A stretch of DNA of 64,000 nucleotides from assembly GCA_025823825.1 (NCBI GenBank), contig GCA_025823825.1_4720.1. The stretch is one strand, 5' to 3'. This stretch comes from a phage. Position 1 is the first letter of the stretch; every line of letters starts with the position of its first letter. Below the pieces are notes generated by a model. It saw only the letters and a list, made by a program, of their open reading frames with translations, ran no database searches and was not told where the DNA came from. Positions 6,024 to 36,267 of the stretch are shown here, one piece after another. A program made the position numbers and the translations under genes.

Positions 6024-6650
6024 ATGGCTGTAACACGCATGACGCCAAGTCCCGGTGCGGTCGGGGTATTCACAGTATCAGCGCCGTTCTCCGTTGGTGC
6101 GTCAACGCTATATACTGTTACAGCGTTGCGAAGATTCAGCGAAGTCATCGGTAGTGGAATCGATCTATTTACGGAACTGTACGAACCGTTATCAATAGAC
6201 AAATCCACTTTCGAAGCGCATCTCGAAGCGAATGCTTATCTCGTCACGTTGCAACCGGATTACGGTGCACCCGTACTGGTACCTGATACGTATATCACGT
6301 CGTACCCAAAGAACGATTCCTTGCGGTATCGTCGCATTATTCTGGGTATCGATTTCGGGCCTCTTCCTCCCGGTCTTGACCTTTCGTATTTAACAACGAT
6401 ATTGAAAGGTAAGGCTAGTGATATTCTTGGTGTCGAACCTGAAGTTAAAACGATGGAAATCACTCTCGATGATACCGTTACTCAGGAACAGCATCAGATA
6501 AACGAAGCCCGTCGTCAGGCTGCGATAAAAGAGCGAGATACCATTTACGCACGCTGTGAAACGCAAGAGAAGCAGATAACGGCTTTACTTGCAACCCAAA
6601 AGCAACTTATCAAATTGCTTCAAGACGCCGGTATCAATCCGACACCTTAA
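6024..6650 (+). CDS. hypothetical protein (208 aa)
   Basis: Track ORF begins at a TTG; the ATG at 6024 has GGAGG 6 nt upstream and overlaps the stop of the upstream gene. Confidence 0.55.
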   Translation: MAVTRMTPSPGAVGVFTVSAPFSVGASTLYTVTALRRFSEVIGSGIDLFTELYEPLSIDKSTFEAHLEANAYLVTLQPDYGAPVLVPDTYITSYPKNDSLRYRRIILGIDFGPLPPGLDLSYLTTILKGKASDILGVEPEVKTMEITLDDTVTQEQHQINEARRQAAIKERDTIYARCETQEKQITALLATQKQLIKLLQDAGINPTP

Positions 6651-6656
6651 CATATT

Positions 6657-6688
6657 CCCTCCTCCTTCCCTGACGGGTTGGAGGAGGG
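6657..6688. terminator. conserved CCTCC/GGAGG hairpin element (family member 1)
   Basis: CCCTCCTCC-TTCCC-TGAC-GGGTT-GGAGGAGGG; flanked by CATAT on the 5' side and TTATG on the 3' side. Confidence 0.6.
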
Positions 6689-6702
6689 TTATGCCGTCAA
6701 GC

Positions 6703-6717
6703 AAAAAAAAAAAAAAA
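6703..6717. repeat. A15 homopolymer tract
   Basis: 15 consecutive A between the two hairpins; on the minus strand it is a U15 run, but it lies downstream of the second hairpin in minus-strand transcription, so it is not the U-tract of a canonical intrinsic terminator. Confidence 0.9.
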
Positions 6718-6722
6718 TGATA

Positions 6723-6755
6723 GTCACAGGCCCTCCAATGAAGGAGAGCCGTGAC
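6723..6755 (-). terminator. hairpin immediately after stop of 6763..7482
   Basis: GTCACAGGCCCTCC-AATGAA-GGAGAGCCGTGAC imperfect inverted repeat; the A15/T15 run is adjacent. Confidence 0.55.
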
Positions 6756-6762
6756 CGTCAGT

Positions 6763-7482
6763 TTAGGATGCGGATAATCTAGCGTACTTCTGTCGAATAT
6801 AGTTCTTACGGCGAACTTCGTCATCCTCGTCACGCCATTCGAGATAAGCAACGAAACGGCGTAACTGTGCCGCAGTCATCGTTGACGATCGGTCTTTTAC
6901 ATCTAGAACGACGTAACGAACGTCATCAACGCCGTCGCAACCAACATAACGGAATACCAAAAGACCGTTATCGTATTCAATGATGATAACTTCGAATCGT
7001 TTCTCGAACAAATAAAACAGTTCTGATTCAATGATCATCGGAACTACGCATTTATCATCATGATCGATGATTTTCATCATCACCCGTAACGCGCGAGGAG
7101 TATGACGAGCGAACTGACCGTCGAAACGTTGTTTCATCGTTTGTTCCACGTCGTCTGTTTTTGTTCCAGGCCAAGGACGCACTACAGATTTCGGTGGTGT
7201 AAGACGGCAGCGGTACGCTTGTATAAACAACAGAATATCAGCAACATTAGGAAATTCATCCTGGTCTTTGTATAGCTTACGGATAATATCCGGGATCGTA
7301 GTCAACAAATATTTCTTATCGCCTCCCACTTTCTCGAGATTAGCGATATGTCCTTCTACCACAGGCTGGTAAACAAAATTATACCAGTGGTGGTATTTTG
7401 CAACGTGTTGGTATTTCGGGATGAGATTAAGAACAGTATTTACTGCGCGTTTTAATGGGTTCATCAGAAGAATCCTTCTCAT
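6763..7482 (-). CDS. hypothetical protein (239 aa)
   Basis: Track ORF; ATG overlaps the stop of the upstream gene (ATGA); last gene of an operon behind the promoter-like motif at ~9.2 kb. Confidence 0.6.
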   Translation of the reverse strand: MRRILLMNPLKRAVNTVLNLIPKYQHVAKYHHWYNFVYQPVVEGHIANLEKVGGDKKYLLTTIPDIIRKLYKDQDEFPNVADILLFIQAYRCRLTPPKSVVRPWPGTKTDDVEQTMKQRFDGQFARHTPRALRVMMKIIDHDDKCVVPMIIESELFYLFEKRFEVIIIEYDNGLLVFRYVGCDGVDDVRYVVLDVKDRSSTMTAAQLRRFVAYLEWRDEDDEVRRKNYIRQKYARLSAS

Positions 7483-20885: not shown

Positions 20886-21664
20886 GCGAGCGTTGCTCCC
20901 GTATCGTGTTGCGTATGGCGTAGCATGGTAGCATCCCATTGTACGATCCGGCTCCGGCTTACCCGCATCATGATGGATTCGTCATCAAGCCCTGGTTGCA
21001 CAACCGGCAACCAACGTTCGTTAAGCACCTTCGCTTCAACGCGTTTCTTGCGGGGATTGTAACGCACCTCGCTAACCCAAGCGAATCCAAGTGGATGCAC
21101 AACCCGTGGATAATACATGCGGAGCAATTGATGCATCCGATCTGTCACCTCCAGGTTAACATCCACCATGTAAGGTTTCACCATGGTAAGCTTTTTGGTG
21201 TAATACGTTCCAACGGTATGGTTACGCCAGCATGGCAAGGCATGATCCCCTTCTCTCAGTTTGCTATCCGGGTTCATCGGCCAGAACTGCTGTTCACCGC
21301 CCAGCATCGCGTGCCGCCGATCAACGCAACGAACCTGATCGGCGAACAATGGATCCAGGATATCATCCACCGCGCCCTTATTGCGATAACCGTGATGTAC
21401 CACCAACCTGCTTGCGCTCATCCGTTGCGGATGCTGGCTCTTATGCGCATACAGTCCTCCATCACCGCGCGTGTCGTAAAGATAGCCGCATGCGCCACGC
21501 CATATCACCTTGCCTACGGTTCTCTCGTTTTCAAGCAGCATCGTCGGCCCATCAAGCAAATTGGTGAACCACTGCACCTTCACGCATTCCGCTTGGACAT
21601 GCTCAGGTAATGCCTGATACTCTTTTTGGGTGTATAAGGTATCAAAAATGATTTCATCGTTCAT
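20882..21664 (-). CDS. hypothetical protein (260 aa), first gene of the operon
   Basis: AGAGGA about 10 nt upstream of ATG; the promoter-like motif lies about 100 nt upstream. A 223-aa antisense ORF on the plus strand was rejected. Confidence 0.55.
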   Translation of the reverse strand: MNDEIIFDTLYTQKEYQALPEHVQAECVKVQWFTNLLDGPTMLLENERTVGKVIWRGACGYLYDTRGDGGLYAHKSQHPQRMSASRLVVHHGYRNKGAVDDILDPLFADQVRCVDRRHAMLGGEQQFWPMNPDSKLREGDHALPCWRNHTVGTYYTKKLTMVKPYMVDVNLEVTDRMHQLLRMYYPRVVHPLGFAWVSEVRYNPRKKRVEAKVLNERWLPVVQPGLDDESIMMRVSRSRIVQWDATMLRHTQHDTGATLA

Positions 21665-22507: not shown

Positions 22508-23401
22508 TTATTCGGAAACGTTATAGCCGAATACTGCTTTACCGTAGGTGTGGGTACCGTCAGCTAACGACACCACTAACACATTGCTGTACGTAGCGTT
22601 AACACCATTGTCGGTAGAACTGGTGGTAGCACCGTTATAGACAAAGGTAGCTGTTTGCAGATTGGTTTTCAGTTCATTGATGATATCATCACTTACGCCG
22701 GTCTGCTCTTTGATCAGGGTGGTCAGGTTACCTGCTAAGCTTGCATCGATCTTGGTGTCGTTACTGGTAATAGCTTGTAAACCTGCAGTGTAGGTGCTGA
22801 AGTCTAACGGATAGGTTAACAGACGCGCTGAGGTCTTGGTACCATCGCCTTCATCAACGTAGGTTAAGTTACCCAGGTTGGTAACCTCGATGATGTTAGC
22901 CAGATCCAGCGTGGTGTTATAAACTTTAACTTGAACAGAGCCATACCACGCCAACGAATCTTCTTTGGCTTCCAGGGTGATCGTCTGGATACCAGACTGA
23001 TCGAAGGTAACCGGAGTAGCTAACGTTTCGGCTTTGATGTCTTTCGCTTTATCCAGGAACTTCTCACCGGAAGGCGTGATCATACCGTAGCGTTGAGCTA
23101 CAAGGTCAACCACATCACCGATGGTGGTGTTCGCCTCAACGTTAACACGTACGGCGATCTTCTGGAACCACTTAGCCAGATCCAGACGATGGTAGGTAAC
23201 ATCGCGGTTATTGAAGTAAGGGGTACCTTCACCAGGACTAAGTGTTAAAGTTGCTTCTGGAGCAGAAGGATTCTTTTCTTTAAGGACGTATTTAAGGTCG
23301 GTATATTTAAAGCTGGCACCAGTGTCAGCGTTAAGCTGGTTGATCTCATCAACGATAAGTTGCCAAGGTGTTTTTAAAGTAAGCGATACTTGAGCAGTCA
23401 T
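22508..23401 (-). CDS. abundant Thr/Ser/Asn-rich protein, probably structural (297 aa)
   Basis: Track ORF 22508..23677 trimmed to the ATG at 23401 (GAGGAAG upstream); codon usage is biased toward E. coli-preferred codons. Confidence 0.6.
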   Translation of the reverse strand: MTAQVSLTLKTPWQLIVDEINQLNADTGASFKYTDLKYVLKEKNPSAPEATLTLSPGEGTPYFNNRDVTYHRLDLAKWFQKIAVRVNVEANTTIGDVVDLVAQRYGMITPSGEKFLDKAKDIKAETLATPVTFDQSGIQTITLEAKEDSLAWYGSVQVKVYNTTLDLANIIEVTNLGNLTYVDEGDGTKTSARLLTYPLDFSTYTAGLQAITSNDTKIDASLAGNLTTLIKEQTGVSDDIINELKTNLQTATFVYNGATTSSTDNGVNATYSNVLVVSLADGTHTYGKAVFGYNVSE

Positions 23402-23540
23402 TTTCTTCCTCGATAGTTGGTACATCACTCTCAAAAGATGTAAGTGTTTACAGAAATTAATATATTTTATATTAAATGTGAATATTATGGAGAACGACTC
23501 CGAATCTCCTTTTCGACCATCAAAATCAGAGGACACGAAC

Positions 23541-24086
23541 ATGTCTACTTTAGACTTTAACAAAGCAGCGAAATCCCTTCTGCTTGATCTTATTAACACC
23601 AAAGCGACCCGCACATTGGCTGAAGAAGAACTGCAGTTCGGTACTCCGCAGGAATCTTCCGAACATGAAAAGAACACCGTTATTCAGCTGGACGCGGCGG
23701 CTGAAGCAGCTAACCTGCAGGGTACTCAGCAGTTCTACTACGATCGTCTGGCTCTGTCTGACGTTTTCGCTGATGTAACTGGTGATGTTACTTTCGAACT
23801 GCCGCACGGTACTGACAGCATTCAGGCTTCTGAGCTGGTAAGCAAGCTGGTCACCAAATTCGGTCTGGCTTCCCTGAATGGTGAAATCAGAGAAGAAACC
23901 TTCCAGCTGTCTGCCGGTACTGTTGGTGAGGTAATTCTGAATGCGATCGAGGGTGGCCTGGTATACACTGGTACTCTGCGAGTTGCCCTGACCTACGCAC
24001 TGGCACCAAAAGACGAACTGGCAACCGTTCTGGCGAATAACGTAGCTGAAGGTTTCGAGAAACCGACCGTTAGCGTTGTTGGCTAA
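23541..24086 (+). CDS. abundant small protein, probably structural (181 aa)
   Basis: ATG with AGAGGA 8 nt upstream; very strong codon bias (CTG, GGT, CGT, ACC, CCG); the antisense ORF 23550..24095 was rejected. Confidence 0.65.
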   Translation: MSTLDFNKAAKSLLLDLINTKATRTLAEEELQFGTPQESSEHEKNTVIQLDAAAEAANLQGTQQFYYDRLALSDVFADVTGDVTFELPHGTDSIQASELVSKLVTKFGLASLNGEIREETFQLSAGTVGEVILNAIEGGLVYTGTLRVALTYALAPKDELATVLANNVAEGFEKPTVSVVG

Positions 24087-24284
24087 TAAGCACATAGAGC
24101 AATAGTATGGGTTTTGTACAGCTCGGCTATTGATCTTCTACAATTTGGTTGTAACAATCTGCGTGGTTGCACGCTTATCTTTCTCATTGAACGCTTCGTA
24201 TGAAGCGTGGTGTTGAAAGGGTTGTGGATCTCCTCAAGCGGCCAGGGACCCAGACCAACCTGAATAAACACAAACACATGTTAA

Positions 24285-24318
24285 GCCCCTCCTCATCCGT
24301 TATTGGGTGGGGAGGGGT
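24285..24318. terminator. GC-rich hairpin between convergent genes (divergent family member)
   Basis: GCCCCTCC ... GGAGGGGT around a longer loop. Confidence 0.4.
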
Positions 24319-24380
24319 CTTATACGTCTTTATGCGTTCCGTTCGTTCTGGATCGTTTTAGGACGGTTTATGATGGTGTT

Positions 24381-25016
24381 TTACTCAACACTGAACCCGT
24401 TCAAGATGATCGCTTCATAACGCTTACGTTCACGACGTTTGCGTGCCTGCCAACCGTAGATGAATTTCTCATCTTTCTCACGACGTTCCGCTAATTCGAT
24501 GTAATAGGTGCTCTGCATATCCAGCATCGCGTCGATGAGATAATCCTTACCGGTTGCACCACGCTTAGCGATGTAAGCATCAAGAGCTGCCAGTGATTTG
24601 GGACCCATTGCACCATCAGCATCAATATCTTTCCAGTAAGTTTGACGGTTGTTCATGACGTTCAGGTAACGCTGGAGGTTCTTAACTGCGACTGATTTGC
24701 CTGCGTTGATACCCAGGTCAAAGAGACGGTCAGCTAAAAACACAGAACGTTTCATGACTTCATCAAGCTTCATCTTATCCCAGAAGTGGGTCTTGTAGAT
24801 AAAGAACGCCATTTCCGTGGTAAGGTTACGCATGTTACCGTTCCAGCCGAATTTCGTTTTCAGTGTGGTTTTGTATTGATTGGCAAGCGCTTGCGTAATG
24901 CCGTGGTTTGTGATTCCGCCCGAATCATCGGGATCGTCGACGTAACCTGCTTCGATGCTGGTTTTGTCGCGAATGATAAATTCGCACGTAAAATCTTTTT
25001 CAGTAATCTTAGCCAT
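24381..25016 (-). CDS. endolysin, GH108-type muramidase with probable peptidoglycan-binding domain
   Basis: N-terminal ...EAGYVDDPDDSGGITNHGIT... matches the GH108 signature; no signal peptide. Confidence 0.75.
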   Translation of the reverse strand: MAKITEKDFTCEFIIRDKTSIEAGYVDDPDDSGGITNHGITQALANQYKTTLKTKFGWNGNMRNLTTEMAFFIYKTHFWDKMKLDEVMKRSVFLADRLFDLGINAGKSVAVKNLQRYLNVMNNRQTYWKDIDADGAMGPKSLAALDAYIAKRGATGKDYLIDAMLDMQSTYYIELAERREKDEKFIYGWQARKRRERKRYEAIILNGFSVE

Positions 25017-25059
25017 TAGAACTCCTCGTTGGAATAACGATTTAGAGGAATAGGAAGGG

Positions 25060-25132
25060 TCTAGAACGCGATAAACGATTTAATCCAGGCAAACCCCAGG
25101 TTAAACTTTTCTAAGCGTTAGAACGCGTTCTA
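25060..25132. promoter_or_regulatory. repeated half-site TAGAACGCG, including palindrome TAGAACGCGTTCTA
   Basis: One direct copy at about 25060-25070 and a perfect 14-nt palindrome at 25119-25132, upstream of the endolysin start. Confidence 0.45.
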
Positions 25133-25142
25133 GAGCGCAATA

Positions 25143-27191
25143 TCAAATACCTTTGGTTCCCTTCACGTGATGTGCGATTTCTTCAACCATTGCACGCAGA
25201 GCACGAAGCTGTTGGTCGTGTTCGTACCAACCGCCTAACAGAACCCCGCTATACACCATGGTGTCAAGACTTAACAGTCCTTTATCTGATACGTTGATCA
25301 TTTCAGGGAACTGTTCTTGAACACGCTGTGCGATAACACCGATCTTCTCTACATCAGGATCGTAGTTGTGGCGGAAACGGGCAAGCCCGCTGCGCGCCAT
25401 TTCGCGTAAACGCTCACTAAGAGACTCTGGGTGGTCTTTCAGATAACGGATGTCGTGTTTACTGCGCTCATCCGAGCGAATGTATGCGTTAGGAACATCG
25501 ATGTTGCTGTTGAAGTACAACGCACTACCACCACCTGCAGAGTTCCCCCAATAGAAGCGTGTGATCTCACCGCCGCCATTCTCCGTGATGATGACATGTT
25601 TACCTAAACGCGTACCACCATTACCATCAACGAAGACCAGTTTGTTTCCGCTGTAAGAACCCCAGAACAAGCGTGTATCGATGATGTGTGTTGCAGCGAG
25701 ACGGGCGTTACGTGGTGTAGAATACACGGTGTTAACATCTTGCTGTGCATGCGCATCGGAAGCGATACCGTAGTTCTGTACGTTACCTAACCCAACCTGC
25801 GCTTTCGTAACAGCATGAGGGTTATCCCGACGGTTAGCGTGAGCGTTAACCAGATCGCCCGCTAATTTCTGAATTGCCCAGTTGGTAGACTGTGGTGTCA
25901 TGTAACGGTTAGTTGCAGAACCACCTTGCGCTTCAGCTTGGTTAGCGGTTGGGTAGTTCTCAACACTTCCTAACCCTACTTGTGCTTTAGACACTTGGTG
26001 TGGGTTATTCTTGTCAGCGATGTGTGCATTAAGCGGAACTAACGCAAAGGTCTCAATGGACGCTTTGGTTGTGTTCGGTGCCATTAATCGGTTAGCTGCA
26101 ACACCGGCACGCGCTTCTTCTTCAGAAGCCATTGGGTAGTCTTGCACATTCCCCAACCCAACCTGCGCTTTGGTTACCCTGTGTGGGTTGTTGTAATCGG
26201 CTTTATGCGCATTAAGTGGGATCAATGCGAACTGTTCAATCGCTGCAGCGGTGCGTAGCGGCGTCATGAAACGGTTGTTCGCTGTTCCGGCTTTCGCCTC
26301 ATCATCCGAAGCGGTCGGGAAGTTATCAACGTTCCCAAGGTTAACCTGCGCTTTCGTAACAGCATGAGGGTTATCCCGACGGTTAGCATGCGCGTCGACT
26401 AGATCGCCTGCCAGTTTAGCAATCGCCCATCCAACCGTCTGTGCCGTCATGTAACGGTCAGGTGCAGTACCGGCTTCTGCCTCCGCCTTGTTTGCGGTAG
26501 GATAGTTCTGTACGTTACCTAGTCCGACTTGGGCTTTTGTTACTTCGTGCGGGTTATCGGTACGGTTAGCGTGAGCGTAATGCAGATCGGTCAGATCTTT
26601 ATCCGCCGCTTGCATGTCTTTGCGTAGCTGATCGATTGCCGCCCAGAGACGGTTATCGGACGCAGCATCACCGATAAGTATTGCGGCCTTCAGTGAGTAG
26701 ATCGCTAAGCAAAGATGTTCGGTACCGTAAATAGCACTAACGTGGTGGATGTGTGGTTCAGGCGGATAGAGTTCCGGTTTGTTCTTGATGTCGTCCCAGT
26801 TGATCGGACGATCGTCAAGTTTGAGTTCTTCGATAGCCTGATATAACGCGTCAATAAGACTTACGTAAACACCACCGATGATACGATAGTCGTTAATTAA
26901 CGTCCCCTCGATATCATCGTTGATGATGGCGATCGCCGCACAGATTTCTTTACCTGCGTAAAGCGTCGCATCCTGATACAAGAAGATGGGTTTATAATCC
27001 ACGCCTCGTACCAGTGTCTTACCGGTAAGCTTTTCAGTGATGACCAGACTTTCGGTAAAGAACGGTCCGCCATCAAGGGCGTAACATTTATTCTCGGTTC
27101 GTGGAACGGTATGCTCTTCACCAACGATGTGGTTGCTGGCGAGTGTACCGGTCCAGTCCTCGGGGTACTTCAGGGTAATTGGTGTCGACAT
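25143..27191 (-). CDS. tail fibre protein with repeat array and C-terminal intramolecular chaperone domain
   Basis: Five repeats of about 55 aa, each with NPH.VTKAQVGLGNV.N[YF]P.A...EA.AGT; C-terminal ...SDERSKHDIRYL... resembles the autoproteolytic chaperone domain (peptidase S74-like) of tail fibres and spikes. Confidence 0.75.
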   Translation of the reverse strand: MSTPITLKYPEDWTGTLASNHIVGEEHTVPRTENKCYALDGGPFFTESLVITEKLTGKTLVRGVDYKPIFLYQDATLYAGKEICAAIAIINDDIEGTLINDYRIIGGVYVSLIDALYQAIEELKLDDRPINWDDIKNKPELYPPEPHIHHVSAIYGTEHLCLAIYSLKAAILIGDAASDNRLWAAIDQLRKDMQAADKDLTDLHYAHANRTDNPHEVTKAQVGLGNVQNYPTANKAEAEAGTAPDRYMTAQTVGWAIAKLAGDLVDAHANRRDNPHAVTKAQVNLGNVDNFPTASDDEAKAGTANNRFMTPLRTAAAIEQFALIPLNAHKADYNNPHRVTKAQVGLGNVQDYPMASEEEARAGVAANRLMAPNTTKASIETFALVPLNAHIADKNNPHQVSKAQVGLGSVENYPTANQAEAQGGSATNRYMTPQSTNWAIQKLAGDLVNAHANRRDNPHAVTKAQVGLGNVQNYGIASDAHAQQDVNTVYSTPRNARLAATHIIDTRLFWGSYSGNKLVFVDGNGGTRLGKHVIITENGGGEITRFYWGNSAGGGSALYFNSNIDVPNAYIRSDERSKHDIRYLKDHPESLSERLREMARSGLARFRHNYDPDVEKIGVIAQRVQEQFPEMINVSDKGLLSLDTMVYSGVLLGGWYEHDQQLRALRAMVEEIAHHVKGTKGI

Positions 27192-27204
27192 AACCTGGAG
27201 GTCC

Positions 27205-29802
27205 TTATAACGTGACTGTACCTAATTTGGTTGTCTTATTGAGATTAATGACAGAGATCTGGGTATCGCTGGTCGTAATCGTTCCGATATTAACGCGCTG
27301 TCCTTTATCATCTTCTTGCTTGTAGATGGTTAACTCCAGTTCTAACTGGTCGCCATTAGGAACAACGGAAACGTACCATGTTTTATTACCTGGTGAACTA
27401 TTATAGTCTTTTAGGTTATAATGGCCTTTAGGTAAGGTCATGGCCTTACCGGCAAACAAACATGAAATGTCCTCGTTGATATAAACGTCGAAACCGGAAG
27501 AAGCGATGACTGTTGAGGCCATTATTCGAGACGCGACGATACCACGATTATAGTCGTCGATTGTGGTACCTATGACATTGAATACTTGCCCCCCGTTACC
27601 CATAATGGTCGATTCGCTAGTGTTTACGTAGCCGATACCCCAAGTCGGATGAATGTTCCAGCGGTACCCACTGTTTTGTAAATACGTATACAAGTCTTCA
27701 TAGGCCGCATTCACCCAACTACCATCACTTTTTCGTCCAGCCCTAAATTGGAATGTGTTGCTATTTCCAGATGTTCCTCGGCCAAGAGGGACATGTCCCG
27801 CCACCAACCAACCATCTGTACTTTGCATATACGCGAACGAACCGTACGCTCTGTTATCGGCCCAAATATTCACGGTATCAACACGTTCAACGTAGGCGAT
27901 CACCTTTTGTACGCCGGTTATAGCGATTGAACCCTTGCGTGCCGACACATTAACTTCAGCAATTACGACACCCATTTTCCGCTGGCTGCTGTTAAATCCC
28001 AATACGACCATTAAACACGGTGCGTTTGTTGTTTCTGGAGGAATCGTTATCGATTGTTTCCAGTCGGTGATTCCGCTGAGTTTCGTTCCAGTATATGCGT
28101 TCCAGACGGTTTGTCCAGCCGATTTCAGATTCTGTTCAGAAATAGAAATGGCCTCGCCCTCAGGGATTAACGTGTCGTAATTGAGACCAATGTTGCTGGA
28201 TAGACGAAGGTCGTTTAAGTAAGATCCGCTGAGTGTGACGTTACCGTTACGATAAATTGTCAAGAATGGCGCAGCCAGGGAGTTTAATACCGTAAAGTTA
28301 CTCGATGGCATGAAACCATAGACATCGATGCCATTACCGTGGTAATGGTAGTTTGTCCAACTACCTTGATAACTTACGGTACGTGCATCGTAGTGGCCTT
28401 GTCCAAGACCGCTGCTGGATAACGTGTATATCTTGGTTGCTGATAGAAATGCGAGATATCCATGCGCTGCCAGAGCTCCAACTACCCTGTCTTTTATCTT
28501 TAACCAAGCTGAAGTATATAACGTACTGTCGGGATTCATTTTGGCTATTTCATCGTAAGCCGTGCCTGCGAAGTTTCCGATAGTGTACGTACGTATATCC
28601 GGCTGTCCGTTATTGTCGTTTTGTACAGCAATTACTTGCCCAGAATCATTGATATCGATATTACCGATACAGTTGTGAGCCCCCCACACCCAATATCCAT
28701 CTTTATAATTGGATTCTCCTTGTGTAAATGTCGACGGTCCTCGCCACGCGATGCCGTTCGATTCGGCGTAGTATGTAGCTTGTCCCGATCCTGGATTCAT
28801 GGCGTATCTGTTATTGGTCGGGTCAAAATCGATGTAAAAATGATGCATTCCTTGACGTTGACGGTTGTCCCGATCATTTGTCCACCACGACGAACCGACC
28901 AGAATTCGCGCTTTACCATTTTTTACAGTGGACCATAAACGTATTGCGGCGCGCCAGACGATTTGACCGATCCCGTTGGACGGGAAACTATTCGCACTGA
29001 TGCTGTTGCAGACAACGAGCTCGCTGCTGTTGTTTATTTGAGTCCCTTCAATTGTAACGCCGTTTATGTTAGTAATCAGTGTTGCCGATACGCTACCCCC
29101 TGTAGGGGCGATAGAGGAACGTTGAACGGTGTAAATTTTTAGTGATAATTTATAGCCGCTCCGAATAGCTATACCAATGTAAATAGTTCCGTTAATTTCC
29201 CAACAACAAACATCGGGCATTGTTTCTTTGAAATCGGATAAAGCACCGTCGATATACATCGCAACGTGTTTGCTGGCGTCGAATGTGCCGTCCGTTAACG
29301 CGATGAACATTTTGGCATTATTACCGTTGATATCAGCCGCTAATCCGAGTAGTATGTTGTTCTGATGACAGTAAATGGCTTTAGGCGCTAGATCCAACAT
29401 AGCTGGTTGGTACTGTCGGCTTGTTGGTATTACGCTAGTAACTGCGCCATTTTGATCCGTTTTACAAATAACGTAATATACACCGTGTATGATGCTGTTT
29501 GTCGCTGACCTCAGTAGGACGATCGTCCCGTCAGATTCACGACATATACCGTAATGGCGATAGTCGGTGATTAAACCGATAGCGCCATCGGCCGAACCTT
29601 CGATTGCCAGAGGAAAATAACTTTGGTCCCCAACCTGTTCGATATCGGTTACGCCAATATCGATGTATTTTTCCATCTCGGTGTTGAACTCAGCGGTACT
29701 GTAGGCACCGAGATCGCTCGCCTTTAGTCCCGTTGGGTTGTCACGACTGGCGATACGTGTAGTAACGCTACTCACCAGTTCGCTGAACTTTTTCATTGCC
29801 AT
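27205..29802 (-). CDS. large tail fibre or tail spike candidate (865 aa)
   Basis: Sits in the tail-fibre block; N-terminal ...RDNPTGLKASDLGAY... is related to the NP..VT.AQ motif of neighbouring fibre genes. Confidence 0.45.
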   Translation of the reverse strand: MAMKKFSELVSSVTTRIASRDNPTGLKASDLGAYSTAEFNTEMEKYIDIGVTDIEQVGDQSYFPLAIEGSADGAIGLITDYRHYGICRESDGTIVLLRSATNSIIHGVYYVICKTDQNGAVTSVIPTSRQYQPAMLDLAPKAIYCHQNNILLGLAADINGNNAKMFIALTDGTFDASKHVAMYIDGALSDFKETMPDVCCWEINGTIYIGIAIRSGYKLSLKIYTVQRSSIAPTGGSVSATLITNINGVTIEGTQINNSSELVVCNSISANSFPSNGIGQIVWRAAIRLWSTVKNGKARILVGSSWWTNDRDNRQRQGMHHFYIDFDPTNNRYAMNPGSGQATYYAESNGIAWRGPSTFTQGESNYKDGYWVWGAHNCIGNIDINDSGQVIAVQNDNNGQPDIRTYTIGNFAGTAYDEIAKMNPDSTLYTSAWLKIKDRVVGALAAHGYLAFLSATKIYTLSSSGLGQGHYDARTVSYQGSWTNYHYHGNGIDVYGFMPSSNFTVLNSLAAPFLTIYRNGNVTLSGSYLNDLRLSSNIGLNYDTLIPEGEAISISEQNLKSAGQTVWNAYTGTKLSGITDWKQSITIPPETTNAPCLMVVLGFNSSQRKMGVVIAEVNVSARKGSIAITGVQKVIAYVERVDTVNIWADNRAYGSFAYMQSTDGWLVAGHVPLGRGTSGNSNTFQFRAGRKSDGSWVNAAYEDLYTYLQNSGYRWNIHPTWGIGYVNTSESTIMGNGGQVFNVIGTTIDDYNRGIVASRIMASTVIASSGFDVYINEDISCLFAGKAMTLPKGHYNLKDYNSSPGNKTWYVSVVPNGDQLELELTIYKQEDDKGQRVNIGTITTSDTQISVINLNKTTKLGTVTL

Positions 29803-29814
29803 TATTCACCTCGA

Positions 29815-30300
29815 TTAAATAGGCGAGTCGGGTAGCTGACCATCATCGATCTCGATGGTGGCCACCTTACGTGTTGCAGCAAGATGTGATGTACCCTGGA
29901 TTTTGTTCCAGGTGCCGATACGCATGGCGTTTTTGTAGCTGCTATCGCTATCGTTCAGCGTGTAAACAAAACCGCTATCGGTTACGGCAAGATAGATCCA
30001 GCCTACAGACTCACTGATGCCTGACACGTCCAAAGTTGCTGCTGGCACCGTCCCTACCACCGTGTTGTATTCCGCTGTACCTTGACCAATGCTGATCCGT
30101 CCGTTGCTGTAACTGGCTGCTGGAAGCGTTTTATTTCGACTGAAGAAAAGAAACGGAAGGTAACGCTGGGTAACAAGCGGTGCAAGTTTAGGAGCCACTT
30201 CGGTCTTAACGTAGACATCTGTTTGTGCTGGCGTTACCTCGTGAGGGTTCTTTTGGGTAAGATACGTCCCCCATTCAGAAAGCAGTGTTGATAGCTTCAT
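29815..30300 (-). CDS. small tail-fibre-related protein (161 aa)
   Basis: N-terminal ...QKNPHEVTPAQTDVY... shares the fibre repeat motif. Confidence 0.5.
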   Translation of the reverse strand: MKLSTLLSEWGTYLTQKNPHEVTPAQTDVYVKTEVAPKLAPLVTQRYLPFLFFSRNKTLPAASYSNGRISIGQGTAEYNTVVGTVPAATLDVSGISESVGWIYLAVTDSGFVYTLNDSDSSYKNAMRIGTWNKIQGTSHLAATRKVATIEIDDGQLPDSPI

Positions 30301-30304
30301 GCGG

Positions 30305-30820
30305 TTACCCCATGTAACGTTTTTGGCCGAGGATGAAGACTTTGTTAAATACCACCGAAGTGATTCCTGTTGCGTTACAGCTCACCTGCCCGACGCGAAT
30401 TGCTGTTGACGTATCGACCCCAGCACTACTCTGCCAGATCCAATCGATCGATCCGTCTTTCTGACGAATGAAAAGATAACCGGTTTTGTTCGCCCAGTCG
30501 GAAGTAAGTTTTTTGATGTCTAGCGTTCCCTTCGCCAGAATATAGTCGGTACCGGCGATCATGACGGGTATTTCAGGATACGAGATTACCGTACCGCTGG
30601 CAGTAACGTTGCTGATGCGTTCGCTACGAATATCGGTACAGTCACCGAAATACGCTACGGGGAGTATCCCCTTAAGGAGCTTTTTGCCGATTCTCGTATC
30701 GATCGTGTTTTTATCGGGTGCGTCGATTTGCGCTGCGGTGACTTGGTTAGGGTTATCCTTCCTTGCGTACCATGTCGTCATGCGAGCACCCAATTCACTC
30801 ATTTTTGTGCCCATTTTCAC
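30305..30820 (-). CDS. small tail-fibre-related protein (171 aa)
   Basis: N-terminal ...RKDNPNQVTAAQIDAP... shares the fibre repeat motif. Confidence 0.5.
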   Translation of the reverse strand: MKMGTKMSELGARMTTWYARKDNPNQVTAAQIDAPDKNTIDTRIGKKLLKGILPVAYFGDCTDIRSERISNVTASGTVISYPEIPVMIAGTDYILAKGTLDIKKLTSDWANKTGYLFIRQKDGSIDWIWQSSAGVDTSTAIRVGQVSCNATGITSVVFNKVFILGQKRYMG

Positions 30821-30871
30821 ATCCTATCGAAAAATAAAAAGAAGGAAAGGTGGGTAGAACCCACCCATCCG

Positions 30872-33025
30872 TTATAACGTTTCGAAGTCGGTTGCTTTGA
30901 TAACCGCGTTGAAGTTGGCAAGGAATTCCTTAAGCAGTGCTTGGAAGACATCACGAAACGCTGTGTTCGTCTGCAAGCTGGTTAAATAATCGTTCTTAAG
31001 GTAATCGCTCAGCTTACCGATCTTCTGCATCTTCTCGCCGTCTTGGTTCTCTCCAGGTTCTTGGCTGTTGATGTTAACCCATTTGATCCCTTCGAGATCG
31101 CCATCGGCAAGGAAGTTGGCGGGTGTCTCATCGTCGTTCAGGATTTTAATCGTATCACTGGATTCAATGCCACCGTAAGCTTCCAGAAGCTGGTTGACTG
31201 TTAGCTTATTGGTGTTGATTGAACCATTGACACCATCGATACCGATGCCTGCACCTGTGATGGATGTCGCCGAAAGATCGATCGGTCCGGTTAACTTACC
31301 ACCGTTGATCGGTAACGCACCAACTTGCTCAGCGGTGTGTGTGTGGCCAGCTAACGCCGCAAACGCCACGATAGACTTATACGTCGAATACGGCGTCATA
31401 TACGCTGATTGGTTGGTGTTGTCAGCCGCTTCAGTATCGGTAGCAACATTAAAGTTCTGCACGTTGCTGAGACCGACCTGCACCTTCGTTACTTCATGCG
31501 GGTTGCTCTTATTGACAACGTGTGCTGCAAAACCATCACCAGCTAAAGCAGTGATTGCCGCTTTTGTCGCAGCCGGTGTCATATAGCGGTTGGTTGCTTC
31601 ACCCGTTTGCGCCTCTTCGTCGGAAGCAACAGGATAGTTCTCAACGCTTCCCAAACCGACCTGAGATTTTGTTACTTGGTGTGGGTTTTCGGTATTCGCA
31701 ATATGACTACTGAACCCTTGACCCGCCAGTTGCTCGATTGCGTAACGAACAAGTATTGGTGTCATGTACTTGTTGTTAACTTGACCATCGATAGCTTCTT
31801 GGGTGGTGGCAACCCCGAAGTTTTGCACGCTCCCCAACCCAACTTGCGCTTTCGTAACAGCGTGGGGGTTATTGGTGTTACCGATGTGATCGGTAACCGT
31901 TGGGGTGATTAATCCTGCGATAGCGGCTGCCGTGGTCGCAGGGGTCATGTATTTATCGTTAGCAACACCCGCAGCAGCTTCTACGTTAGATGCTACACCG
32001 TAGTTCAATACATTTCCTAACCCAACCTGAGCCTTGGTTACCCCATGTGGGTTATTGGTGTTGCCGGTATGGGTTGTCAACGTAGCGTTAACGTTATCGA
32101 TACGCGTGCTTAAGCCATCGGTGATTGCTTTGATTGCGGCTCGTACGCCCGCTGGTGTTGTGTACAGATTTGTGGCCGTACCGGTAATGGTTGTATTACT
32201 ATCAGCTACACCGTAGTTCTCAACGTTTCCGAGTCCCACCTGGGCTTTCGTTACCTTGTGTGGGTTGTTGTAGTTGCTGATGTGCGCAGCAGCACTATCA
32301 CCACTCAGGTTAGCGATCATCTTACGCGTCATCGCCAACGTCATGTACAGATTTTCACCGATGGTTTCCAGATCGCTCTCGGTCGCCGTTGTGAAGTTCT
32401 GAACATTCCCCAATCCAACTTGAGCCTTGGTTACCCCGTGGGGGTTATCGCGACGATTCTCGTGCTGCAGCAATGCGGTCATTGCTTTATTGAACCCTTC
32501 TTCAAGCGGTTCTTTCAATGATTCGATTGCCGCCACCACATCGTCCCACGTCATTGTGTCGGTTTCGACATTATGTTGGTGGTTGATTGGTGGGAATACG
32601 GAAGGAACGTCGGCAACCTTTTCCCAGAACGTAACGCGGGGATCGTAAAGGTTGTTGGCTAAAACGTTAAGAATTTGTTGTTGATCAAGTGTAAACTCAC
32701 CCCCCAGTGAATAGTAGTTCAGTTGCAACTGTCCACTGAATGCGGTGTCCAACAGCATGATGGAACCGTATAATTCCAGGCCGGTCAGCGCAGCCATGGC
32801 ACGGAAGGGGTGAGTGCATAAAAAGTCAACGCCTTCTTCCAGATACGCGTTTGTTTCATGGTTGTAGATCTTTAACCCATTACGGAAATATGGCGCGTAT
32901 TTAGGAACGAGAAAGTTAAATCCGGTCCCCGTGGAAGGACGGACAGTGACGAGTTCTTCTGGAACCCATGCGCCATCCAAATTCCCCTGCGGGTTATACG
33001 GAAGGCGTTTAATTTCATCTGTCAT
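30872..33025 (-). CDS. tail fibre protein with about 7 tandem repeats (717 aa)
   Basis: Repeats NPH[GA]VTKAQVGLGNV.NF/Y...A.AG..N.YMTP; C-terminal HTHTAEQVG. Confidence 0.7.
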   Translation of the reverse strand: MTDEIKRLPYNPQGNLDGAWVPEELVTVRPSTGTGFNFLVPKYAPYFRNGLKIYNHETNAYLEEGVDFLCTHPFRAMAALTGLELYGSIMLLDTAFSGQLQLNYYSLGGEFTLDQQQILNVLANNLYDPRVTFWEKVADVPSVFPPINHQHNVETDTMTWDDVVAAIESLKEPLEEGFNKAMTALLQHENRRDNPHGVTKAQVGLGNVQNFTTATESDLETIGENLYMTLAMTRKMIANLSGDSAAAHISNYNNPHKVTKAQVGLGNVENYGVADSNTTITGTATNLYTTPAGVRAAIKAITDGLSTRIDNVNATLTTHTGNTNNPHGVTKAQVGLGNVLNYGVASNVEAAAGVANDKYMTPATTAAAIAGLITPTVTDHIGNTNNPHAVTKAQVGLGSVQNFGVATTQEAIDGQVNNKYMTPILVRYAIEQLAGQGFSSHIANTENPHQVTKSQVGLGSVENYPVASDEEAQTGEATNRYMTPAATKAAITALAGDGFAAHVVNKSNPHEVTKVQVGLSNVQNFNVATDTEAADNTNQSAYMTPYSTYKSIVAFAALAGHTHTAEQVGALPINGGKLTGPIDLSATSITGAGIGIDGVNGSINTNKLTVNQLLEAYGGIESSDTIKILNDDETPANFLADGDLEGIKWVNINSQEPGENQDGEKMQKIGKLSDYLKNDYLTSLQTNTAFRDVFQALLKEFLANFNAVIKATDFETL

Positions 33026-33056
33026 GATGCGCCCTTTACAAGTTGTTAGTAAGTAT

Positions 33057-33075
33057 GGGATACCCTGGGGTATCC
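33057..33075. promoter_or_regulatory. palindrome GGGATACC-CTG-GGTATCC in divergent intergenic region
   Basis: Between the divergent starts 33025 (-) and 33130 (+); AAATATTACT lies 30 nt upstream of the plus-strand ATG. Confidence 0.45.
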
Positions 33076-33129
33076 TGTGTTAACAGCGGTAAAATATTAC
33101 TGTAACTATAAAATAAGGGGGCCTCTCCC

Positions 33130-34410
33130 ATGTATACATTGGTAAAAACTTACGGGTTACCCGTAGGTTCTGGCACGGCCTGGACAGCGCTTGAGGCGGG
33201 TGAAAGTGTCCTGAGTACGTTGTTCTCAACGTATCAAAAACTCAAGATCCAGGTCCACGAAAGCTATGCTGACCAGCAACAAGTTATTGATCTGTACACA
33301 TTTCAATCCGAGCTTCAAAACAGCAGCGATACGCTCAATGCGTGGTTGAAAGCGAAATCGGATGCGCATACCAACCTTCGTGGACAGCCCGGCGAGCTGT
33401 CGATTAAAACCCACAAGCTTTATTGTCACGACGCTATTACTGTAGGCTTTCTCCCTAAAGTCGGTAATAGTGGCTATCATCCGAGCAACGCGATCCCTGA
33501 GTCGGAACGCACTGATATCCTGTTGACGAAAGCGAATACGAATTACGAAAATATCGGCAAACACTGCTTGTTCACCGTAGGCGGTTATGTTCATCCTCAT
33601 GTTTACGGTAAAGACGTTGGTGTCTATATCCAGGGCGGGTTCAAGACGGCACAGCGCGGCCAAGAAAACGATATCGGCATGATTGATTTTAGCCGTATCG
33701 GGAGTTTGGAAATTCATGCTATCACAGAAGAGATGATTGCTGATTCCACGAAGCTCTTGCCGTATAAGGACGAGATGTATTTACGGCTACCGCGCAAGGT
33801 CGCCGAAGATGAAACCGTCGCGCTGGTGTTCGGGGGATATTTACATCTTCTTGACGATTGTTACACGATCGTTAGCGACACGACGGCGAAAATAAACTGC
33901 ATTAACATGTTTCTCTATGAACGATACTTCCGTTCCCGTAAATACCTTGATCTAACATCTCTTGGTATTCTGTTGAACGAAGAAGACCCACAGTCCGACA
34001 TTGTTGCCAATCGTTTATTGTCCGATAAAGCATTAAAAGCGTGGGTGACGCATCCTTGCAGTTTCTGGGTGTATATCAAAGCAACATCAATTCAGGTTAC
34101 GCAAGAACCTTTACCACGAAGTGGTGTACCAGGACAATATTTCTTAGGTAAGAAACCGGAAGGATTGATTCGAGCCGATCTTGGTGAGTTACCGGCTTAC
34201 GTGCAGACCTATGAAAAACCGTTATGGGTACTTCACTCGCGCTGGGGACTTCGTAAGAATATGTTGTTTGAAAATACGTTGTACAAACATACCCGCGTTA
34301 AGCGACTTAACGATACGCCTTATCTTCACCAGGTTTGGTTGGAAACGCATGCAACGTTGCAGACAGTACACAAGCTCGAATTGATCGATTCCAGTCAGAA
34401 AAACAAATAA
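33130..34410 (+). CDS. hypothetical protein (426 aa)
   Basis: Track ORF; AAGGGGG upstream; the only plus-strand gene in this block. Confidence 0.6.
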   Translation: MYTLVKTYGLPVGSGTAWTALEAGESVLSTLFSTYQKLKIQVHESYADQQQVIDLYTFQSELQNSSDTLNAWLKAKSDAHTNLRGQPGELSIKTHKLYCHDAITVGFLPKVGNSGYHPSNAIPESERTDILLTKANTNYENIGKHCLFTVGGYVHPHVYGKDVGVYIQGGFKTAQRGQENDIGMIDFSRIGSLEIHAITEEMIADSTKLLPYKDEMYLRLPRKVAEDETVALVFGGYLHLLDDCYTIVSDTTAKINCINMFLYERYFRSRKYLDLTSLGILLNEEDPQSDIVANRLLSDKALKAWVTHPCSFWVYIKATSIQVTQEPLPRSGVPGQYFLGKKPEGLIRADLGELPAYVQTYEKPLWVLHSRWGLRKNMLFENTLYKHTRVKRLNDTPYLHQVWLETHATLQTVHKLELIDSSQKNK

Positions 34411-34420
34411 CCAAACATAA

Positions 34421-34452
34421 CCCTCCTCCAACCCATCAGGGAAGGAGGAGGG
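34421..34452. terminator. conserved CCTCC/GGAGG hairpin element (family member 5)
   Basis: CCCTCCTCC-AACCC-ATCA-GGGAA-GGAGGAGGG; flanks CATAA ... AATATG. Confidence 0.65.
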
Positions 34453-34461
34453 AATATGCTG

Positions 34462-35367
34462 TTATGCTACATATAACGTTAGATAACCGTCGATGAGCGT
34501 ATTCATCACACTGAGTTGAAGTACGACAGCTTTACTAACATCCGTACGTACACCAAACGGGAGTGTTTTGAATTGCTCTGGATCGGCTATTACTTTCGCG
34601 TTCTGCAAGTTGAGTGGTCCAGGCATTGACGACAATACCCAGCGATCGTTGACCATAAGGCCGTCGATCTCTTCAGAGAGACCCAATTGCAGTGCGTTCA
34701 TTTCTGCGATTAGTGCCTCCGATTGCGTATCACCTGAGGTTAACGTATACCCATCGGTAAGTGACGCCAGAACACCAGCAGATACGAACCAGTTGTACGA
34801 AACAATAGCGCCTGGGAGTTTACTGCTATCTCGATCGATGATATAATTCAACCCAGCCAACATATTGTTGCGAACGAGGTTGTTGAGGTCGTTATGTCCT
34901 GAAGTTAACTCAACAAGTAATTGACCAACCCATACTTGGTTACCGGGTTTAGGTGTTATCGCAACCTGTATCGGTGACCTGGACTTATCCAGATCCGCGT
35001 CGACAATCTCGGTTTTGTTGAGAAGGATACCGTACGTCGATGCTAAGACAGGTAGGATCTCAGAGACCTTGGTTAATGCATCTAAGGTTTCGATCTCGAT
35101 GGGCCAGTGGTGCTGTCCGCCAGACCAAGTACCCAGTTTACCAAGATCGATGCGGTTATAATAGATGTCGACAGAGTTCACCAGCCCTGAACCAGGTTGG
35201 GGATGCACGGTTAACTTGCTGTTACGCTTGTACCCTGTGCTTTCAGAAGCTTCACCGATAACCAGTTTATCCAGCGTTACGCCTCGAGCATCGAAATCGC
35301 TATGCTTTCGAATCAGCCGAAAGAGGATTTCTTTCGATTCTAACCCCAGGATTTCACTGTACTCCAT
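34462..35367 (-). CDS. paralogous virion-type protein, family member A (301 aa)
   Basis: Shares STYGI, RWVL, NLQNAKV and a C-terminal L..Y motif with 36284..37135 and 37146..38081. Confidence 0.6.
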   Translation of the reverse strand: MEYSEILGLESKEILFRLIRKHSDFDARGVTLDKLVIGEASESTGYKRNSKLTVHPQPGSGLVNSVDIYYNRIDLGKLGTWSGGQHHWPIEIETLDALTKVSEILPVLASTYGILLNKTEIVDADLDKSRSPIQVAITPKPGNQVWVGQLLVELTSGHNDLNNLVRNNMLAGLNYIIDRDSSKLPGAIVSYNWFVSAGVLASLTDGYTLTSGDTQSEALIAEMNALQLGLSEEIDGLMVNDRWVLSSMPGPLNLQNAKVIADPEQFKTLPFGVRTDVSKAVVLQLSVMNTLIDGYLTLYVA

Positions 35368-35382: not shown

Positions 35383-36267
35383 TTACGGTAGGATTTCTGC
35401 GCCCGTCGGGCCTGCCTTACGAGCTTCCAACGCACCAAGGTCGTATTTCAGTGTCAGCGTATCGTTGGTGGTATAAAGGTTGTGGTAAGTCGAAATCAGA
35501 TCGGTAACCTGCGCGCCGACGATTTCGTTCATGTCGAAGGTAGAACCTTGACCATCATCAGCACGAACGATTTTATCGCCAGCAGAGACCATCCCAATTT
35601 CAGAAATAACCGCGTACTCTTCACCACCTTCTGTGAGTTTAGCCACATTGAGATATTCGTTAATATCCCATGGCGTCCAAACCAAAGAGACTTTACAGCT
35701 GTAGTCGTAGTACTCCCCGGTCGCTACCAGAATTCCGGTTGTTGGAATATCCGGTCGGGCGGGGTTGAGGTTCGCGTCGGTTGGATGCCATTCGATGGTC
35801 TGAGCGACGCCGTCGACGTATTTGGTATAACGCATGGAGCGGACAACGTTATCGAAATCGATGCGACGACCGTAATAACAGATATACTTTTTACCGCTTT
35901 CCAGTGTCTCAATACGACGTAACCCAAATTTAGCGCGTTCGTCTGTGGTTAAGTCGTTACCAACCTCACGCATTACGAAAGGTTTGATTTTCCACGGTGA
36001 AAGATCGCTTGCTTCGTGAGCGATCGGCATCGAGGAAGGGATACCGTTAGCGTTGCGGATGAATTCGTGACCCTGGTTGCCGATACAGAAGTAACGTACA
36101 GCAGGATTACCCTCGGGGTAAACCTTTGATTGAATCTGAAGCTTTTCATTCAAGGTGCTGTGTTCTTCCCACGCATGAGGAAGACCGAGCGTAAGGTTAG
36201 TTTGTACTTGACCGCCGATAATCGTACGGACGATACGATCGGTAGCACGGATTTGTGTAGAAGCCAT
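35383..36267 (-). CDS. hypothetical protein (294 aa) in the same operon
   Basis: Track ORF; no clear similarity to its neighbours. Confidence 0.6.
   Translation of the reverse strand: MASTQIRATDRIVRTIIGGQVQTNLTLGLPHAWEEHSTLNEKLQIQSKVYPEGNPAVRYFCIGNQGHEFIRNANGIPSSMPIAHEASDLSPWKIKPFVMREVGNDLTTDERAKFGLRRIETLESGKKYICYYGRRIDFDNVVRSMRYTKYVDGVAQTIEWHPTDANLNPARPDIPTTGILVATGEYYDYSCKVSLVWTPWDINEYLNVAKLTEGGEEYAVISEIGMVSAGDKIVRADDGQGSTFDMNEIVGAQVTDLISTYHNLYTTNDTLTLKYDLGALEARKAGPTGAEILP

Follow-up and report, generated by a model that had tools for sequence, protein, structure and literature searches.

In phage phiKZ, twelve peripheral fibres are docked beneath gp130, which is present in 12 copies per virion, one per fibre site, and each site comprises six gp131-like N-domains and a six-helix bundle (PMC13250141). 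For Escherichia phage Goslar, a 237-kb nucleus-forming jumbo phage (chimallivirus), the fibre and peripheral-baseplate density in cryo-electron microscopy (cryo-EM) was left unassigned, and gp25 and gp29 were named as likely fibre components (10.64898/2026.04.21.720040). Here we analyse a block of five fibre genes, lettered A to E, in a 64,000-nt stretch of phage DNA (contig GCA_025823825.1_4720.1; hereafter the window, to which all coordinates refer, while gp numbers are those of Goslar unless phiKZ is named). The five open reading frames (ORFs) follow one another on the minus strand, all in the same direction, at the positions where an earlier note, made from the DNA letters alone, had placed a block of tail-fibre genes (Table 1). 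We find that this block is the Goslar-type version of the phiKZ gp131-gp135 peripheral-baseplate fibre module, because it adjoins a gp130 homologue and because A and E carry the gp131-type N-terminal anchor domain. The fibres and the peripheral baseplate of Goslar and phiKZ virions are unresolved by cryo-EM, and the analysis supplies a domain map and a testable list of the parts to be expected there: anchored A and E for six N-domains per site, B, C and D at one-sixth of the A/E level, and a chaperone-matured tip on A.

At the sequence level, the window is a close relative of Goslar. Over 82% of the block the DNA is 94.6% identical, and a 20-kb stretch is 95.0% identical over 91% of its length. 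The genes have the order, sizes and strand of their Goslar counterparts (NC_048170, HOV27_gp025-029), and the flanking endolysin and gp30 genes are conserved. Protein identity is 99.4% for A, 98.8% for C, 98.2% for D and 98.9% for E. Gene B differs: its product is 65.7% identical to gp26, its central cassette is replaced, and nt 27760-28612 cannot be aligned at the DNA level. In essence, the block is the gp25-gp29 cluster already known from Goslar, carrying a new gp26 allele. The Goslar annotation gives gp25 and gp29 as virion structural proteins, and they are listed as 'Tail fiber' in the label-free quantification (LFQ) table of the 2026 preprint (10.64898/2026.04.21.720040). PHROG tail and virion families match the block proteins with E-values down to 1e-145. 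These are jumbo-phage families, with one exception: phrog_1699 ('long tail fiber distal subunit'), whose match spans aa 420-672 of A and takes in the chaperone region. Searches of Pfam and NCBIfam gave no T4-type long-tail-fibre (gp34-37) match among the block proteins. The PHROG matches, the homology of A and E to phiKZ fibre proteins and the presence of all five Goslar orthologues in virions bear out the earlier reading of the block as tail-fibre genes.

In phiKZ, a divergent gp130 is followed by five fibre genes, gp131-gp135, and the window has the same arrangement. By BLASTP, the gene divergent to E matches phiKZ gp130 (E 3e-26), the ORF at 35383-36267 (-) matches phiKZ gp139 (E 1e-49), and the first 260-350 residues of A and E, from residue ~1 onwards, match phiKZ gp131, gp133, gp134 and gp135 (E 2e-8 to 1e-41). 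A hidden Markov model (HMM) of this N-domain scores 1e-43 for A and 4e-44 for E, both of which were in its training set, and has no match in B, C or D. The layout with a divergent gp130 homologue and a nearby gp139 is also found in Erwinia phage RAY, Serratia phage PCH45, SPLA10, PhiEaH1, Aeromonas phage PS2 and pEa_SNUABM_54. Exactly two N-domain proteins are encoded in six lineages, namely the window, PCH45, SPLA10, PhiEaH1, pEa_SNUABM_54 and a more distant relative of the window, contig L006. The module also departs from its phiKZ counterpart. phiKZ has four N-domain proteins (gp131, taken three times, with gp133, gp134 and gp135), whereas in the window only A and E carry the domain and B, C and D have lost it. 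The phiKZ shafts have 1-2 repeats, those of the window are longer, with 5-6, and the SDxRxK signature occurs in none of phiKZ gp131-gp135, whereas A has an S74 chaperone.

The shafts of A and E are built from units of 61 aa. As the earlier note had counted, A has exactly 5 of them, with NP at aa 213, 274, 335, 396 and 457 and a period of 61 aa (183 nt). The 'about 7' that it gave for E come down to 6 full units (NP at aa 194, 254, 325, 386, 447 and 508, with one spacing of 60 aa and one of 71 aa); the seventh is only a degenerate half-unit, HTHTAEQVGAL, at aa 561-571. Each of these 11 units matches the repeat HMM at E 1e-27 to 1e-32, a fit that holds by construction, since the model was built from the same units (5 of A and 6 of E). 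In the AlphaFold2 (AF2) monomer model of A, a unit consists of a ~20-residue helix, a low-confidence NPHxVTKAQVGLGNV loop and a short helix. Pfam and NCBIfam were searched and gave no model for the 61-aa repeat; many PHROG tail and virion families include it. A word-filtered search with A retrieved 1843 proteins at E<=1e-10, and among the matches listed, the N-domain and repeats of A were common, lengths and C-terminal Pfam domains varied, and the contigs were often >200 kb. The DNA identity among the repeat units is only 60-79%. They are therefore old, are kept by selection at the protein level and offer homologous recombination a poor substrate, a role that we considered for them and rejected on the same grounds. 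In phiKZ, gp132 (L005 8811-9143, 110 aa) consists of little more than one NPH repeat unit (repeat HMM E 6e-17) and lacks both an anchor and a distal domain. It is listed as a paralogue, its fibre role not being discussed further (PMC13250141).

The pattern NP..VT.AQ occurs 10 times in the 49,645 residues of the six-frame window ORFs, with 0.0014 occurrences expected from composition. All ten lie in A, C, D and E, and no other part of the window contains the motif. B, C and D are without an anchor domain, and each starts directly at a junction module, as indicated by matches to a junction HMM. According to the earlier note, each of the three opens with one copy of the motif. This applies to C (NPHEVTPAQ at aa 18) and D (NPNQVTAAQ at aa 23), whereas the near-copy in B (NPTGLKASD at aa 22) is degenerate and does not fit. 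The shared module that it postulated was found: we aligned the first ~60 residues of the B-, C- and D-type proteins of the window, two related contigs and PCH45, and HHalign relates these N-termini from four phages to the 11 repeat units with 95% probability (E 3e-8). The overlap covers only 23 of the 61 columns, namely the helix end and the NP motif, and beyond it the B/C/D-type proteins take a junction pattern of their own, NPxxVTAxQ..Y.K. In phiKZ gp131 (aa 321), gp134 (aa 279) and gp135 (aa 274), this pattern, there NPHxVTAxQ..Y.K, is the last copy ahead of the distal domain, whereas in the window it opens B, C and D. The junction HMM, although trained without phiKZ, matches phiKZ gp131, gp133, gp134 and gp135 directly after the last repeat (E 9e-9 to 2e-6).

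A ~100-aa C-terminal domain common to B and D aligns with the C-termini of PCH45 440 and 441 and of RAY gp18, gp19 and gp20, and columns 888-971 of phrog_3573 match both aa 83-166 of D and the C-terminus of B, so that the alignments clearly point to a shared domain. For C, HHalign relates the C-type C-terminus to the B/D type with 33% probability (E 4e-4), collinearly over 83 columns, and the C-like protein of L006 matches the D-like protein of PhiEaH1 over aa 26-138, beyond the junction. A clear membership of C in the B/D domain family was not upheld at this HHalign probability and, aided by the one cross-match, is left as probable: C is probably a diverged paralogue of D that shares its C-terminal domain. 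In RAY and PS2, the B-like and D-like modules are fused to an N-domain of their own, and the same modules are anchor-less in the window, L006, PCH45, SPLA10, PhiEaH1 and pEa_SNUABM_54. The window has three anchor-less proteins, PCH45, PhiEaH1 and pEa_SNUABM_54 have a small and a large one, and SPLA10 has two such pairs; a rule of always exactly three was therefore rejected. The stand-alone proteins PCH45 442 (L003 14748-15809) and PhiEaH1 gp190 (L010 15188-16282), each of ~355 aa, show homology to the last 300 aa of the E-like protein gp57 of pEa_SNUABM_54 (L012 9323-11941; E 1e-40), and represent a further case of fibre domains split from or fused to an anchored shaft.

Relative to Goslar, strong divergence in the block is confined to the body of B (66% vs 98-99% for its neighbours). 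Compared with gp26, the first ~120 aa are 85-100% identical, the centre 42-72% and the last ~65 aa 97-100%. Database relatives of B fall into classes at 97, 89, 80, 66, 48 and 33% identity, all of ~865 aa, and their invariant columns concentrate at both ends. The same gradient is seen with L007, a 236-kb contig from a Salmonella Enteritidis assembly, to which gp30, E and A are 93-99% identical (98.8% for the gp30 homologue gene), D 89%, C 83% and B 48%. This pattern indicates that diversification is by cassette replacement of the middle of B. The recombination-driven diversification that had been proposed from the shared motif is thus supported only in part, for this cassette; the repeats, at 60-79% DNA identity, are not its substrate. 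Swapping the middle of B probably changes host recognition. The central cassette (nt ~27523-29559) is where Goslar-like phages of E. coli and Salmonella differ, which makes it an obvious target for the host-range engineering of defence-resistant, nucleus-forming phages.

The AF2 model of B predicts a confident all-beta body (aa 82-760) between low-confidence termini (aa 1-81 and 764-865). These termini are the modules shared with C and D, and low confidence would be expected of parts that need an oligomer to fold. Foldseek relates the body to 5-7-bladed propellers (Pseudomonas pseudaminidase 2w38, Photorhabdus lectins and GH43) at template-modelling (TM) scores, TM(target), of 0.28-0.42. In phiKZ, the distal body of gp131 is a propeller by crystal structure (as cited in PMC13250141), whereas that of B is a predicted one, with no homology between the two shown at the sequence level. 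B was considered as a direct homologue of the gp131 propeller and not accepted as such: its sequence matched no PDB chain, and the Foldseek matches are generic propellers, with gp131 absent from the top 50. From its model and its variability we infer that B is the candidate main receptor-binding protein, whose propeller probably binds lipopolysaccharide (LPS) sugars. A genome-wide screen identified the LPS outer core, GluII, as the receptor of Goslar (supplement of 10.64898/2026.04.02.716166), which is compatible with a carbohydrate-binding propeller in B.

A draft E. coli assembly encodes the exact B protein of the window on a contig of 238 kb (HCQ4163485.1), and relatives at least 90% identical lie on 236-248-kb contigs of E. 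coli O157, S. Typhimurium and S. Bovismorbificans isolate assemblies. The Goslar-type B allele has 326 member sequences, with a Salmonella Enteritidis assembly as its source name. A search of complete E. coli genomes with the window gave no match. Goslar-like jumbo phages seem to accompany enterobacterial isolates, whether in a carrier state or as contaminants.

In Goslar, gp25-gp29 are all present in purified virions (LFQ Table S4; 10.64898/2026.04.21.720040). All five block proteins are therefore virion components, with the qualification that the virion proteomics, here and below, is that of the Goslar orthologues and not of the phage of this window. The LFQ areas per mass are 9.26 for gp25, 8.04 for gp29, 1.92 for gp30, 1.52 for gp28, 1.47 for gp27 and 1.37 for gp26 (10.64898/2026.04.21.720040). 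Calibrated on 27 proteins of known copy number, with a scatter of a factor of 2.15, they correspond to ~54 copies of gp25, ~47 of gp29, ~11-12 of gp30 and 8-9 each of gp26, gp27 and gp28 per virion. The estimate of ~12 for gp30 fits the 12 copies of gp130 per phiKZ virion (PMC13250141). Despite a five-fold difference in size, gp26, gp27 and gp28 agree within 11%, gp25 and gp29 agree within 15%, and A/E exceed B/C/D by a ratio of 5.9, which is uncertain by a factor of 2.

These data also bear on the idea that C and D are assembly chaperones or factors for B, like T4 gp38/gp57A or Mu/P2 Tfa, rather than parts of the virion. As such factors might be, C and D are encoded by small genes directly upstream of a large fibre gene and tightly packed (gaps of 4 nt for D-C and 12 nt for C-B; those of E-D and B-A are 51 and 13 nt). 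However, their Goslar orthologues are found in CsCl-purified virions with coverages of 36% and 61% and at the molar level of gp26 (10.64898/2026.04.21.720040), both proteins share structural modules with B, and no chaperone-family matches were obtained for them. We regard such a role as highly unlikely.

A and E are the two anchored fibre proteins, each with a gp131-like N-domain, a shaft of 61-aa helix-loop units and a tip of its own. As homotrimers, A3 and E3 would together give the six N-domains of a fibre site, for which a virion would need 36 copies of A and 36 of E. The anchor-less B, C and D would join them as one low-copy complex, present 6 or 12 times in a virion; its simplest form would be a 1:1:1 heterotrimer joined through the shared N- and C-terminal modules, and the ~680-aa beta-propeller body of B would act as an exchangeable host-recognition cassette. 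We infer these oligomeric states and a docking place for B-C-D. Indirect support for a hexameric base comes from the two N-domain proteins in each of six lineages and from the equimolar gp25 and gp29. Taken as a whole, with module identity, anchored A and E, anchor-less B, C and D, the B cassette and the assembly, this explanation has a probability of roughly 0.6 in our estimate. More tentative, and in our judgement somewhat doubtful, is its strictest form, in which B-C-D is an obligate asymmetric 1:1:1 heterotrimer, with a receptor-binding double propeller in B only, at 6-12 copies on an A3 + E3 base. If it were true, the heterotrimer would be a split-gene derivative of the phiKZ gp131(x3)+gp133+gp134+gp135 design, and host range could be reprogrammed through the swap of one internal cassette of B.

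Several points weigh against the proposed assembly. The LFQ copy numbers scatter ~2.15-fold and were measured in Goslar, and low, equal values for B, C and D would also result if purification removed distal parts of the fibre to the same extent. The structure models are of monomers only, and the fibre density in the Goslar cryo-EM map is unassigned (10.64898/2026.04.21.720040). The membership of C in the family of the shared C-terminal domain is weak (HHalign 33% probability), and for the propeller of B the match is at the level of the fold, at low TM scores, the phiKZ gp131 propeller not being among the top matches. Furthermore, A lies downstream of the low-copy genes and yet is abundant, for which the hairpin considered below gives no explanation. 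The 1:1:1 heterotrimer is not a general rule, because the trio is not universal; the small and large pairs of PCH45, PhiEaH1, pEa_SNUABM_54 and SPLA10 mean that any such rule must allow a 2:1 composition. Finally, the C-terminal domain of E was rejected as a conserved docking platform for B, C and D, since its conservation does not extend across lineages: the window and L006 share only 37% identity in this domain, less than the average of E, and it is undetectable in the E-like proteins of PCH45, SPLA10, PhiEaH1 and pEa_SNUABM_54.

A different arrangement would be a serial fibre like the long tail fibre of T4, with E3 as proximal rod, D3 and C3 as connectors, B3 as distal receptor-binding trimer and A as a separate short fibre. 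In E-D-C-B, large, small, small and large genes follow one another as they do in T4 genes 34-37, and short motifs are common to neighbouring fibre proteins in T4 gp34-gp35-gp36-gp37 as in the window. Equimolar B, C and D would also suit equal numbers of homotrimers, whose low abundance would be accounted for by partial loss in CsCl purification, and Foldseek gave weak fibrous matches of the A model to T4 gp12 and gp34. In a serial fibre, however, E should equal B, C and D, yet it is ~5.5-fold higher (LFQ 8.04 vs a mean of ~1.45), and the pooled A/E to B/C/D ratio lies ~2.5 standard deviations from 1 (pooled error of a factor of 2). In L006, an A-like gene stands between E and D. The N-module common to B, C and D, and the C-module of B, D and probably C, suit a parallel rather than a head-to-tail association, and the C-terminal domain of E is not conserved in the lineages that keep the small and large pair. 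The repeat shaft of the window is predicted to be helical, and no sequence match to the T4 gp34-37 families was found. Such a fibre is thus unlikely, although less so than a role of C and D outside the virion.

The earlier note had taken several receptor-binding proteins to imply a broad or switchable host range. B, C and D would then be independent homotrimeric receptor-binding tips set into one adaptor, forming a branched multi-receptor fibre. A common N-terminal module with differing downstream parts is indeed the pattern of multi-tailspike phages such as CBA120 and G7C, and related jumbo phages have one to four anchor-less proteins. We consider this reading quite improbable for the present block. 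C and D, of ~160-170 aa, hold little beyond the junction and one ~100-aa domain (clearly as in B for D, weakly for C), and are therefore better seen as truncated versions of B than as different binders. They are conserved at 83-99% while B falls to 48-66%. The copy estimates of ~6-12 each, with their wide error bars, are not multiples of the 18 or 36 expected for six-fold homotrimer arrays. As to switching, no inversion or other switching element is present: the five genes are all on one strand, the only pair of inverted repeats in 24000-34600 measures 20 nt at 80% match, and it is unlike an invertible cassette of the Mu Gin/P1 Cin type. The five proteins occur together at fixed ratios in Goslar virions. 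The conclusion from several receptor-binding proteins to a broad or switchable host range is not supported.

Protein A carries a genuine Peptidase_S74 intramolecular chaperone domain, which starts at S573. The Pfam model PF13884 matches aa 573-631 with 26 bits, where the gathering cutoff is 22 bits; the match has E 1.1e-5 and covers profile positions 1-56 of 58. Precomputed PF13884 matches exist for a protein 99% identical to A (P0027) and for several of its distant relatives (34-44% identical). S573-D-E-R-S-K578 aligns with SDRRIK of the chaperone domain of phage S16 gp37 (6f45), the downstream GVIAQ..FP of A aligns with GLIAQ..LP of the same protein, and SDxRxK is the majority consensus among relatives in a 25-sequence alignment. 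In the AF2 model, aa 573-681 have confidence scores (pLDDT) of 67-86 and include the typical long terminal helix. Foldseek matches the modelled domain to the MyRF ICA (7dc3; probability 1.0, TM(target) 0.58-0.62) and weakly to endoNF (3gw6; E 0.4-0.9). Thus the chaperone that had been suspected in A is supported by the profile search, the aligned signature and the predicted fold. Its position had been misread: SDERSKHDI (aa 573-581) does not end the protein, as claimed, but opens the domain, with 110 residues from S573 to the C-terminus.

As in the known Peptidase_S74 domains (K1F/endoNF 3GW6, T5 pb1, S16 gp37 6F45 and MyRF ICA 7DC3), the domain of A is C-terminal and ~110 aa long, begins with SDxRxK, contains a GxIAQ..(x)P motif and a long terminal helix, and has a MyRF ICA-like predicted fold. 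It differs in its weak sequence match to the solved examples (E 0.013-0.04) and in the presumed mature tip, which at ~60 glycine-rich residues after an alpha-helical repeat shaft is unusually short. Autoproteolysis of these domains relies on a Ser-Lys dyad, with the catalytic Ser at the cleavage site and the Lys five residues downstream, as in S911/K916 of endoNF. S573 and K578 of A have the same spacing, with the Ser at the predicted cleavage site. The short tip (aa 511-572) would be folded by the C-terminal chaperone and then freed by cleavage at S573 via the S573/K578 pair. In the Goslar virion table, gp25 has a protein-level sequence coverage of 58.9% (10.64898/2026.04.21.720040).

In L006, the gene order is E, A-like, D, C, B. 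Its A-like protein (5014-6948, 644 aa) keeps the N-domain and five repeats of A and ends in a different C-terminal tip, with no recorded S74 match. Because the shaft is kept and the end is another domain, the tip of A is also a swappable module. None of the findings on the block is surprising in kind, since fibre clusters that are modular and mosaic and include S74 chaperones occur commonly.

Table 1. Positions of the fibre genes, their parts and adjoining features in the window.
Feature	Position (nt)	Strand	Description
GH108 endolysin	24381-25016		next after A
A (Goslar gp25)	25143-27191	minus	682 aa, self-contained anchored fibre
A, Peptidase_S74 domain	25146-25475		aa 573-682
A, glycine-rich tip	25476-25661		aa 511-572
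A, NPH repeats	25662-26597		5 units
A, N-domain and linker	26667-27191		
B (Goslar gp26)	27205-29802	minus	865 aa, no anchor domain
B, shared C-terminal domain	27208-27522		
B, body	27523-29559		aa 82-760
B, junction	29623-29802		
C (Goslar gp27)	29815-30300	minus	161 aa, no anchor domain
C, small C-terminal domain			diverged; follows the junction module
C, junction module	30166-30300		
D (Goslar gp28)	30305-30820	minus	171 aa as longest ORF, no anchor domain
D, shared C-terminal domain	30308-30610		aa 71-171
D, junction module	30671-30820		aa 1-~60; position given for the first 50 aa
GC-rich hairpin and T-run	30848-30866	minus	between E stop and D start; from a terminator-like scan
E (Goslar gp29)	30872-33025	minus	717 aa, anchored fibre shaft
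E, C-terminal domain	30875-31312		146 aa
E, 6 NPH repeats and degenerate copy	31313-32488		
E, linker			motif W..V..VP..FPP..H.H, between N-domain and NPH repeats
E, N-domain	~32651-33025		aa 1-~125
gp130 homologue (Goslar gp30)	33130-34410	plus	divergent to fibre block

The start of D is probably the ATG at 30814, which gives a protein of 169 aa, and not the GTG at 30820 with which the longest ORF opens, because AGGA lies 7 nt upstream of the ATG and the 169-aa form is the one annotated in Goslar. The hairpin ahead of D has a folding energy of -19 kcal/mol (RNAfold) and is conserved in Goslar and L007. The D-like gene of PCH45 has an analogous hairpin and T-run in front of it, and D of L006 likewise has a hairpin, although there an A-like gene lies upstream. 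The hairpin of the window is a candidate attenuator ahead of the low-copy genes D-C-B, as partial termination at this site would fit the lower abundance of their products. A scan for sigma-70 promoters gave fewer matches than shuffled sequence and is uninformative for a phage with its own RNA polymerases.

The fibre block is flanked by DUF7941 proteins, encoded at 34462-35367 (-), 22508-23677 (-) and 23478-24086 (+). The first has a direct Pfam match, and the other two are taken as the counterparts of Goslar gp22 and gp23, which are labelled DUF7941 in the Goslar table. This family has been proposed to form a micron-scale 'fibre cloud' at the baseplate, and gp23 is among the most abundant Goslar virion proteins (Table S4; 10.64898/2026.04.21.720040). 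Elsewhere in the window, ~347 nt (21229-21575) remain unaligned to Goslar at blastn E 1e-10, between flanks that are 92-97% identical. This stretch lies inside the counterpart of Goslar gp021 and represents a second local replacement besides that in B.

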